The position numbers are program-made. From Thermodesulfobacteriota bacterium (GTDB lineage Bacteria; Desulfobacterota_D; UBA1144; Nemesobacterales; UBA2774): 64,000 nucleotides of DNA. Each line of letters starts with the position of its first letter. Position 1 is the stretch's first letter. This document shows positions 61,401 through 64,000 of this stretch, one piece after another. Where the stretch lies: the NCBI GenBank assembly GCA_963422265.1, contig OY729416.1:192001-256000 (forward strand), in the 5' to 3' direction.

Positions 61401-64000
61401 GAAAATCCTATTTATTCGCCTGACGAGATTTTTTTTGGTGTTATGGAGCGTAGTGAAAAATATCCGACGCTTCGACGTGGTTTTTCTGCTTATCGCCCCC
61501 TATTCGGCGCTCGTCTTGGCAACGTCAATCTGGGTTATCTGTAAAATCGCGCGCAGACCCATGGTGCTGCGATTATCGGGGTCCAGCTTTGGCGAGGTAT
61601 ACAGCTCATACGGCGCGGTGGCTCGCTGGCTTGCCGATCGTACCTACATGCGCTGTGCGCTGATATATGTCGAAACTCTGCAAACGTCTCAGGAATTCAG
61701 CAATCTGGCGAATGTTCATTGGTTCCCAAATACGCGGAATGTCGAGTCGCCAGCCGTGGTCAGGCGTGACAGAGTGAGTAAACTGATCTTTGCTGGTCGT
61801 TTGGAGCGTAAAAAAGGGCTGGCTGAGGCACTAGAGGCATGCCGTCACCTTCCTGAACATTGTCATCTTCAGGTTTTTGGACCTCCGATGTCTAACACGG
61901 ATTTTTCCCTGTTCGAGGGACATCCCCGGGCGACCTATGGCGGCGTGTTGGAGCCGGCAGAGGTGCCTCGGGTGCTAAGCGAACACGACTTACTTTTATT
62001 CCCCAGTTATTTCAGCACCGAGGGCTATCCGGGCATTATTCTCGAAGCCTTCCAGTGCGGCGTGCCGGTTGTCGCCGCTAGGTGTGGGGGCGTTCCTGAG
62101 GTCGTCGAGCACGAACGCAGCGGGCTGCTGGTGGAACAACGATCCCCGTCGGCGTTGCAGTCGGCTATCGATCGGTTGCTAGACAACCCCGCCTTGTATC
62201 AGCGGTTGCGCCATGGCGCCCAACGCCGAGGGGAATATTTTCGCAGCCCAAACTGGTATGGCCAGATGGCTTCCGACCTAAGCGGCTTGTGTCGTAAAAC
62301 AAATTCCACGTGGAGATCTAACCCATACTCCTCCCGGCCTGTATAGGAGATGAAAAGCATGATTCCACTTATTAAATTACCCAAATGGCAATTCGAGTTT
62401 GTTAGAGGTCGGCTTATCAGTTTCGCGTTTTGGGCGCTAGCCGTCATGGTTTTGGTCAATATACATTGGCTACATCTTTGGGGATTGCCCATGGTGCGAC
62501 CTGTTGGCTATGTGGTGATACTCATTGCTTGTCTGCTTCTGCTGGCATTGGTTGGCTTTAGAAGGTGGAAGTCTCCAGGAATGCCCGCCTTGTTGGTCTT
62601 CACCACAATAGCGTCTTATCTACTCATCGGCAGTGGCGTCTCATTTGTTACTGGTGCTGAATGGCAACAGGGAGTGGGTAAAAATATACTGCGTCAAGCC
62701 TTCTTTTTCATCATCCTGCTGGCGGTCACGCTCGGCAGCAGGATGATGCTGGAGCGAATCGGAATCGAGCAATTATTAAAAGGGGTACTTGTGATCCTAA
62801 TAGCGAGTTGCCTCATCGTTCTGGTCTCCCCGATCCTGCGTGATCTCGGCGTGCTGCCACTCTACAGATTGCCCTTTCGCTTTACTGGTGCCTTCACCGA
62901 TCCAAATGACGCCGGCTTCATTGGCTGCATGGCGATAGTTCTGGCGCTGGCATTTATATGCCACGGCGTCCAACGCAAACTCGCGTATCTAAGCCTGACG
63001 CTAGGTTACGGCGCGATACTGGTGTCGTTCTCAAAGTCGGCATCGTTACTTCTTTGCGTGTTATCGATTTTTGTTCTGCTGACGAACGGTTTTGGCAAAC
63101 GAAATCACATTCTCCGCTATCTGCCTATTCTGGGCTTGGGCGCTATCGTCATTCACCTGGACTTAGGTGGGCACCTAAACAAAGTCAACATATATCCTGA
63201 CTATAGCCGTAACACCTTCTGTTCCACGGTGTCCTCTAGTAACCCCGGCTTACGCAGCGATTGCAGCATTCTGCTAGCCGCGCGGGACCCCCTGTCTGGC
63301 GGTGTCGCACTGAACTGGAGCGATTCGGTTCCCATCCCCCTTTGGCAGGGAGTAATGCTTCAAGGGCGTGTTGTGGGGCTGGATTTATCGCACATGAATC
63401 TGAGTGGGCGTATTCCGCCGGAGCTTGGTGGATTAGACCAACTCGTCTTGCTGCGTCTTAACCACAATCGGCTCACTGGACCCATCCCGCTGGAATTGGG
63501 GAAGCTGTCAAACCTCATGGAGTTGAAAATCTCTGGACCCGTCCCGCTGGAATTGGGGAAGCTGATGAAAATGAACTCACTGAAAATGAACTCACTGGAC
63601 CCGTCCCGCTGGAGTTGGGGAAGCTGTCAAACCTCATGGAGTTAAATCTCGATGAAAATGAACTCACTGGCAGTGCCCCGGCAGAGTTCTTGGGTATGAA
63701 ATTTGGTCGTGATACCAGTTTGACCGTCGGTGGTGAGAAGCTTAAATACGGATTTTCAGGACGGCGAATCCACATGTGGCGATCCAGTCTCGATAAAATA
63801 TGGGAGTCGCCCATCCTCGGGAGCGGCATAGGCATCTTCCGGTCTCTTGATAGCGGCGCCCTCAACCATGAGGGCGAACCGGTGGGCATCCACAATACCT
63901 ACCTACGATTGATCGGTGAAGCAGGCATTGTCCCGTTGTTACTATACTGTCTTTTCCTCTTCTCATTGATGTGGTTACAGTGGGCTACTCCACGGTCACT

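Follow-up and report, generated by a model that had tools for sequence, protein, structure and literature searches.

Our study reports on a glycan ligase gene of unusual construction at the end of a 64,000-nucleotide (nt) stretch of DNA from a Thermodesulfobacteriota bacterium (GenBank assembly GCA_963422265.1, contig OY729416.1, positions 192,001 to 256,000 of the forward strand), which we call the window. The gene begins at window position 62350 and continues for 175 nt beyond the window end; its product would be a membrane enzyme of the WaaL O-antigen ligase type, with a capped module of plant-type leucine-rich repeats (LRRs) in its catalytic loop. We propose, with a probability of about 0.7, that the gene was acquired horizontally and belongs to a family, apparently not described so far, of inner-membrane enzymes with the WaaL fold (Wzy_C, glycosyltransferase fold C (GT-C) type); the LRR may act in these enzymes by binding the acceptor or a partner. 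The parts of this proposal differ in strength: that the protein is a WaaL-fold enzyme with a capped LRR module in its catalytic loop is probable, and that the LRR binds an acceptor or a partner is put forward tentatively. A sequence-only reading of the window had described an O-antigen ligase-type membrane protein with LRRs in its large periplasmic loop; Pfam matches, an alignment of homologues and a model of the homologue P0003 bear out this architecture. To this we add that a frameshift interrupts the gene in the present assembly.

The gene is spread over two open reading frames (ORFs), A and B (Table 1), and its parts follow one another in the order transmembrane core with the first conserved arginine, capped LRR module of about four repeats, linker, second arginine, His-Asn and Glu positions, and three C-terminal helices. 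This order puts the LRR module and the catalytic residues in one and the same loop. A simple hydropathy scan of the core gives 11 peaks, several of them overlapping. In Pfam, ORF A matches LRR_1 (24.5 bits, cut-off 20.6) and ORF B matches positions 75-149 of the Wzy_C profile (43.5 bits, cut-off 31.7, E 3.7e-11), and a genome-wide Wzy_C search finds the same place in the ligase gene at 42.3 bits. The LRR units of the window agree with the repeat consensus LxxLxLxxNxLxGxIPxxLGxLxx, and the cap, the 24-residue repeats and the R..MW...PILGSG and HNTYL...GEAG motifs quoted in the earlier reading are all present. Both cysteines of the cap are nearly invariant among 25 LRR-bearing rows, which fits an oxidising compartment, and the arginine of the first Arg motif is invariant in one alignment (A1, 30 sequences) and nearly so in another (A2, 58 sequences).

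Table 1. Features of the ligase gene and of the gene upstream of it, in window positions.
Feature	Position	Strand	Basis or content
ORF A, 431 amino acids (aa)	62350..63645	+	Transmembrane core, LRR cap, LRR1-2, shortened unit, out-of-frame junk and stop
Transmembrane core of WaaL-type fold (ORF A residues 1-290)	62350..63219	+	Hydropathy, homologue model
First conserved Arg motif YRLPFRFTGAFTDPNDAG, inside the core	62863-62916	+	Motif match to homologue alignments
N-terminal LRR cap CSTVSSSNPGLRSDCSILLAARD...LNWS...WQGV, with two Cys and LNW...W.GV motif	63220-63354	+	Sequence, profile
LRR1 and LRR2, two intact 24-residue plant-type repeats	63370-63441, 63442-63513	+	Repeat units
Damaged LRR units, frame lost within	63514..63632	+	Unit spacing 57 and 62 nt vs 72
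Stretch of 39 nt uncovered by aligned X1/X2 contigs	63525..63563 (L001 2026-2064)	+	Contig alignment
ORF B, 186 aa, in a different frame from ORF A	63615..64000, on to window-equivalent 64175	+	End of an LRR unit, last LRR, linker, motifs, three C-terminal hydrophobic helices
Last LRR, on ORF B	63633-63698	+	Repeat unit
Second Arg motif GRRIHMW...ESPILGSGIG, after linker	63759-63833	+	Motif
His-Asn motif HNTYLRLIGEAG (HNTYL...GEAG)	63891-63926	+	Motif
Glycosyltransferase family 4 (GT4) gene, first of the GC-rich island	61213..62346	+	Glyco_trans_1_4 E 1.6e-25, Glycos_transf_1 E 4.6e-25, GC 0.539

With the ORF A protein as query, 8000 candidates were scored and 316 proteins reached E <= 0.001, of which the best 120 were examined. 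At least 29 of these 120 cover at least 78% of ORF A (38-65% identity, 427-689 aa), and at least 16 of the 29, full-length proteins of 560-690 aa, carry both LRR families and Wzy_C in precomputed Pfam annotation; two-domain homologues, which the sequence-only reading had suggested looking for, therefore exist, and they are colinear with the window's gene. One homologue, P0002, is 65% identical to ORF A over 90% of the query. In our own Pfam scans LRR and Wzy_C occur together in six of eight homologues, the exceptions (P0042 and P0046) being LRR-less; Wzy_C falls under its cut-off in the five of the six other than P0007, and several homologues score 22-28 bits. The same pair is present at four further loci, where positions 75-149 of Wzy_C follow the LRR arrays, with Wzy_C over the cut-off in L022 (2017 aa), L031 (2388 aa) and L024 (779 aa) and below it, at 29.8 bits, in L019 (1102 aa).

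When both window ORFs are aligned with 16 homologues, the order of parts agrees along the whole length, from the core and cap through 3-5 LRRs and the linker to the Arg motif, the His-Asn...Gly-Glu-Ala-Gly motif and the C-terminal helices. Residues R145, R444, H486, N487, E495 and G497 (P0002 numbering) are invariant in alignment A1, as are R464, H508, N509, E517 and G519 (P0003 numbering) in alignment A2, which includes LRR-less relatives. The window retains the Arg, Arg, His and Glu motifs, in keeping with the earlier statement that the loop carries the catalytic Arg and His; the equivalence of these residues to those of WaaL is by motif and not by residue-level superposition. As described in PMC12800693, two or three arginines guide or bind the undecaprenyl diphosphate (Und-PP) donor in WaaL, PglS and PglL, the histidine is catalytic and the glutamate is important for activity. 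Mean column entropy is 1.03 bits in the LRR region, 1.13 in the transmembrane core and 0.98 in the C-terminal part, and by this measure the LRR module is as conserved as the rest of the protein. Entropy is near 0 at the LRR framework positions and reaches 1.5-2.8 bits at the x positions of the repeat; variation concentrated in this way is what a functional binding domain shows and not what one expects from an insert in decay.

The fold was tested on the homologue P0003, which is 59% identical to ORF A, and not on the broken window protein, by comparison with 48,161 PDB representative chains. A first model, from a 30-sequence alignment, had a predicted local distance difference test score (pLDDT) of 64.8 and was confident in the LRR part only; the Foldseek rows shown for it were LRR proteins only, and WaaL stood at rank 25 with Z 10.8. 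The second model, of P0003 from alignment A2, reached a pLDDT of 83.8 and a predicted template modelling score of 0.79. Its best match is the WaaL chain 7tpj_B (Z 21.5, root-mean-square deviation 4.3, 344 of 403 residues over model range 14-589) at a sequence identity of 15%, well ahead of FtsW (Z 14.8) and RodA (Z 13), which follow it among helical proteins. Model residues ~285-438 match only LRR proteins in VIA-align, namely the plant ectodomains PGIP, PEPR1, ERL1 and SERK2 at Z 15-19; Foldseek on the homologue model returns OsSERK2 at E 4e-6, with plant LRR matches of 30-36% identity. A profile search of the PDB is topped by GSO1, FLS2 and ERL1, with matches down to E 4e-123, and in the alignment with plant GSO1 the profile spans the N-cap (residues 11-150); the LRR-less P0046 gave no match among PDB sequences at E up to 10. 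Since the LRR module lies between the last core helix and the helix of the second arginine, it should face the same compartment as the catalytic loop, which is periplasmic in WaaL; its chain position and likeness to WaaL thus suggest that it would be periplasmic, above the active site. The ESM Atlas returned only generic Wzy_C clusters, with scores of 0.85-0.86, below the 0.9 mark.

A scan for the wider family, with one genome per species and phyla taken from record titles, found 72 loci, all in records of metagenome-assembled genomes (MAGs), most of them complete chromosomes. These loci fall in nine phyla, all other than the window's own, and include Latescibacteria, Acidobacteriota (Bryobacterales, Vicinamibacterales, Terriglobia), Alpha- and Gammaproteobacteria, Pedosphaera, Binatia, Gemmatimonadota, Nitrospirales, Entotheonella and Chloroflexota. 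The number of modules was approximated by counting cap motifs in the longest ORF of each locus, some of which may be split or truncated; on this count at least one cap is present at 40 of the 72 loci and none at 32, with a range of 0 to 9 modules in ORFs of 436-2388 aa. ORF length follows the cap number (577-813 aa with one, 779-837 with two, 963-1188 with three or four, 1411-2388 with six to nine), and the catalytic motifs stay near the C-terminus, about 130 residues from it for Arg (found in 34 of the 40) and about 90 for His (31 of the 40).

A quick tree of the core and tail was built from 66 rows, leaving out a duplicate (L067) and six fragments or unclear ORFs (L016, L025, L029, L059, L079, L084). 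It resolves three clades: an LRR-less clade of 24 rows, among which 15 are Chloroflexota, the window's clade (12 rows; Shimodaira-Hasegawa-like approximate likelihood ratio test support 100) and a multi-module clade (30 rows). The rows nearest to the window's are the Latescibacteria locus L013 and the Paracoccaceae locus L015. Phylum labels are scrambled on the tree, with 20 changes against a minimum of 7, a figure to which paralogy contributes. Rows that lie close together can differ in their number of modules (8 against 4, 3 against 6, 8 against 2), which indicates that the arrays grow and shrink quickly, and such quick change fits the repeat damage seen in the window. The family is small: when 1.84 billion representatives were scored against P0046, 563 proteins reached E <= 0.001 and only 91 of these reached E <= 1e-30, and many of its 150 best matches, at 400-490 aa, are too short for a large insert. 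Full-text literature searches, judged by the listings of their hits, found no description of a fusion of Wzy_C/WaaL with LRRs, in line with the statement in the sequence-only reading that the architecture was unfamiliar; both domains are known, and their combination, like the family, is apparently undescribed. The LRR-less members carry a different loop insert that has no Pfam match (P0046 residues ~265-400). This insert matches repeated stretches, up to 24 of them, in proteins of 2,000-5,500 aa (P0236, P0242, P0253, P0254, P0299, P0304), and P0175 (904 aa) and P0178 (1384 aa) have 5 and 8 such stretches.

The genome holds a second lineage of LRR ligases in the same island. An intact Wzy_C protein of 2019 aa, with seven caps by motif count, is encoded 3.2 kb downstream of the window's ligase gene (C1:259400-265459, L085:3400-9459). 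In this protein, positions 2-105 of Wzy_C, including the Arg...Trp...Gly.Gly motif, come before the LRR modules, and positions 119-147, with the His-Asn, come after them; 14 other proteins of 1122-2427 aa, 40-67% identical to it in the N-terminal core, share this placement. The LRR array is thus inserted between Arg and His in the 2019-aa protein and before both in the window's lineage, and we conclude that the same loop took up capped LRR modules at two points.

Several observations point to a foreign origin of the window's gene. ORF A had no match in any of 40 relatives from its own family or order, and the transmembrane core alone had none in 119 other genomes of the window's phylum, 93 of which are at least 90% complete; presence in nine phyla of uncultured MAGs, yet in none of these 119 genomes, suggests a niche gene that is traded. 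The gene lies in a block of ~16 kb (C1:253.2-270 kb) whose GC content of 0.51-0.59 exceeds the genome value of 0.441 (5-kb standard deviation 0.034), so that the GC-richer block and the neighbouring GT4 gene of the earlier description are both confirmed. Judged by sequence, horizontal acquisition of the window's gene, from a family that has probably passed between many bacterial phyla, is the best explanation.

The GC-rich block reads as a glycan island. Only 3 nt separate the stop of the GT4 gene from the ligase start codon, and the order is GT4, LRR-ligase, GT2 (glycosyltransferase family 2), GT4-like and giant LRR-ligase, with a methyltransferase also present. The series LRR-ligase, GT2, GT4 and a 980-aa LRR protein recurs at the Paracoccaceae locus L015, where this second LRR protein has no Wzy_C match. 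At 7 of 10 loci inspected, a gene for a glycosyltransferase, a flippase or a sugar epimerase is found within 6 kb. Tandem LRR-Wzy_C paralogues occur in L013, L021, L024, L039 and L044; the second gene in L013 encodes P0004, which matches Wzy_C only below the cut-off. Between the two tandem paralogues of L013 lies a gene with AAA-ATPase_like and PDDEXK_9 domains (L013:4124-5818), and beside these Latescibacteria homologues a PMT_2 (GT-C) protein is fused to tetratricopeptide repeats (TPRs; L013:9130-11166).

WaaL, Wzy and PglL-type enzymes decide the surface glycan, and their choice of acceptor is poorly understood. We propose that the neighbouring glycosyltransferases would make an Und-PP-linked glycan which serves as donor, and that the ligase would transfer this glycan to an acceptor on the periplasmic side. 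The LRR would bind either the acceptor or a partner, which is most likely a protein but could be a glycan chain, and its binding could decide where or when the glycan is attached. Protein recognition, with targeted O-glycosylation or host-responsive surface modification as suggested in the sequence-only reading, would be a tentative version of this role. Of known systems, the WaaL O-antigen ligase of Cupriavidus metallidurans (PDB 7TPJ/7TPG; PF04932) is the closest in structure, with Wzy_C over the cut-off in the window's gene and conserved Arg, Arg, His and Glu residues, whose roles are those given in PMC12800693, in and around the large periplasmic loop. It differs in that its 403-residue chain aligns to the membrane part alone of the homologue model, whereas here a capped LRR module of ~130 residues interrupts the Wzy_C profile, and in relatives up to nine modules (~1,500 residues) do so. 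The O-linking oligosaccharyltransferases PglL, PglS, TfpO and TfpM are likewise of the Wzy_C type and use the same kind of lipid-linked donor, and PglS has an extra periplasmic domain of its own near the active site (PMC12800693). If the LRR binds protein, its place next to the active site would be in keeping with transfer to a protein Ser/Thr, although the extra domain here is an LRR solenoid within the loop and not a C-terminal domain. The module itself shares the 24-residue repeat and capped N-terminus of the plant ectodomains SERK/BAK1, ERL1, PEPR1, GSO1 and PGIP; in contrast to plant LRR receptors, it has neither kinase nor single-pass anchor, forms a loop inside a bacterial enzyme that is polytopic, and has its two cap cysteines upstream of the LNW...W.GV motif. 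TPR-bearing GT-C enzymes of the PMT/TMTC type likewise join a membrane glycosyltransferase to a repeat domain that, in the known cases, selects protein acceptors, but there the repeat domain is terminal, whereas here it sits inside the catalytic loop and varies in copy number.

The setting in a glycan-assembly island with GT4, GT2 and methyltransferase genes also raises the question of whether the enzyme is a Wzy-type polymerase instead of a ligase, the LRR holding the growing glycan chain as a built-in processivity or chain-length device. Pfam Wzy_C covers polymerases too; Polysacc_synt flippase genes adjoin the homologues in L013 and L044, the Wzz co-polymerase (PF02706) had no match in this 99.4% complete genome, and a module number of 1 to 9 that differs even among close relatives could suit a device for chain length. 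On the other hand, the His-Asn and Glu motif and the best structural match are those of WaaL, and the LRR modules resemble plant receptor and defence ectodomains that, by their titles, were solved mostly with peptide hormones or proteins. The 484-aa membrane ORF at the end of the island (C1:267385-268839) matches no Pfam family, so that no flippase is confirmed in this genome. We therefore consider a polymerase unlikely and retain the ligase reading. A bolder form of the ligase reading, which we regard as distinctly improbable, is that these proteins are receptor-ligases, in which a plant-receptor-like LRR ectodomain is wired to a glycan transferase instead of a kinase. A specific envelope or host-derived protein or peptide, bound in the periplasm, would then be presented as acceptor or would switch surface-glycan attachment on and off, and the one-to-nine-module arrays would form a fast-evolving, horizontally traded recognition repertoire with which co-resident symbionts from several phyla fit their surface glycans to one host niche.

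Several points weigh against the proposal of a ligase with an acceptor-selecting LRR module. NCBIfam has no family for ORF A or ORF B, and its PEP_O_lig_1 model scores 21 bits on P0002, far below the cut-off of 188; the TfpM model scores 15.8 bits on P0042 against a cut-off of 600, so that this curated model of an O-linking oligosaccharyltransferase is not matched. In a diderm cell a periplasmic LRR cannot contact the host directly. The window's ligase gene is also accessory, because the genome has an ordinary undivided Wzy_C gene elsewhere (C1:899383-899811, L086; 482-aa open frame, E 1.3e-20). Finally, in this assembly the ligase gene is in two frames, ORF A closing in out-of-frame junk and a stop, and three features of the public data qualify the case for an intact form. 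The in-frame form in run X1, described below, is a single contig whose far side beyond the joint has 24 letters, where sides under 30 and likeness under 95 can mislead. At window 62280 (L001 781) the assembly has A, and contigs of runs X1 and X2 have G at full depth, so that these may be other strains. Among raw Hi-C reads of run X10, about 1/100 of the run, none aligned, which gives no test.

The frame is lost within the repeats. LRR units start at 63457, 63514, 63576 and 63648, giving spacings of 57, 62 and 72 nt against the expected 72, and a 15-nt tandem duplication lies at 63566-63597. Counted by hand, the first short unit is 15 nt shorter than a full unit and stays in frame, and the second has lost 25 nt and gained 15, a net change of -10 at which the frame is lost. 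Public contigs were aligned on the gene with the likeness threshold lowered to 85. Contigs of X1 and X2, runs from different studies, match the gene at 99% or more on each side, over L001 700-2025 (transmembrane core to LRR2) and 2141-2800 (last LRR to gene end), and one X1 contig (1425 nt, depth 16.6) connects L001 2025 to 2065 through 7 other letters, a net loss of 32 nt. The 39-nt hole in coverage between these positions proves nothing alone and was used only together with the X1 joint. By hand arithmetic the -32 nt form places ORF A and ORF B in one frame of ~597 aa, within the 562-620 aa of most single-module homologues; this form also has the 15-nt duplication. Run X7 gave fragments at a depth of only 2-4, with the repeat region not covered. 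An intact allele of the window's ligase gene very probably exists. Given the -32 nt in-frame form in public data, the break must be either a lesion peculiar to this strain, made recently by recombination between repeats, or an error in the consensus.

The same data bear on whether the LRR block was brought here by a mis-join in the assembly and belongs to a different LRR locus (the giant LRR gene downstream, for example), in which case the architecture would be an artefact. The repeat units are damaged, LRR-rich DNA with 75% nucleotide identity over 107 nt lies nearby, and the public contigs break within the repeats. Yet the X1 and X2 contigs run uninterrupted from core through cap to LRR1-2 and again from the last LRR into the catalytic part, and the same domain order is found in many independent chromosome records of other phyla. 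Because the architecture is conserved in many homologues, neither a mis-joined block nor a want of two-domain homologues undermines the earlier reading, and we reject the mis-join, whose probability we consider negligible.

A more substantial alternative, to which we give somewhat less than even odds, is that the copy in the window is a true pseudogene. It would be an accessory gene in decay, in a genome that has become reduced, broken by slipped or unequal recombination of its near-identical LRR units and without function in this strain. Besides the two frames, with their junk and stop, this would account for three indel events within the repeats, 15-39 nt long and unlike homopolymer errors, and the genome measures 1.78 Mb against 2-3.4 Mb for most of its family. 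However, beyond the damaged stretch of ~120 nt both halves retain all conserved motifs and 65% identity to intact homologues, and the 39 nt in question are uncovered in X1 and X2, with an in-frame form in X1. A dead gene here would concern this copy alone and is compatible with the reading of the family as LRR-bearing ligases. Programmed frameshifting and phase variation were also considered and dropped, the lesion consisting of 15-39-nt repeat rearrangements with no simple-sequence tract.

If the family is as we propose, a capped LRR next to the active site would offer a direct handle on acceptor choice or regulation, through swapping or deletion of modules, and the family would be tractable in this respect, with 0 to 9 modules, two insertion points in the loop and some relatives with a different insert there. 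LRR proteins could also be housed in a ligase loop without any secretion system. PMC8163846 lists lineages typical of marine sponges and reports enrichment of eukaryote-like repeats, lateral transfer and few secretion systems. The taxa in our record titles match the lineages named there, and on these taxa the carriers may be sponge symbionts; if so, the family would link the eukaryote-like repeat proteins and lateral transfer of that source to surface-glycan assembly.

Some further features of the region were seen. The GT2 gene of the island (C1:256844-258058, L001:3345 onward) has an N-terminus of ~17 tandem 12-nt units encoding (ASKQ)n, which are slippage-prone but in-frame. In the lower-GC spacer that separates it from the ligase gene, two small ORFs of 70 and 62 aa, without Pfam match, lie on the minus strand (window-equivalent 64220-64623, L001:2721-3124). 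Just upstream of the island, at window 57611-60947, housekeeping genes have the GC content typical of the genome and include ActD of alternative complex III and a c-type cytochrome; the same stretch holds a 436-aa membrane ORF without Pfam match and, at 60606-60947, a gene for a GldC-like protein.

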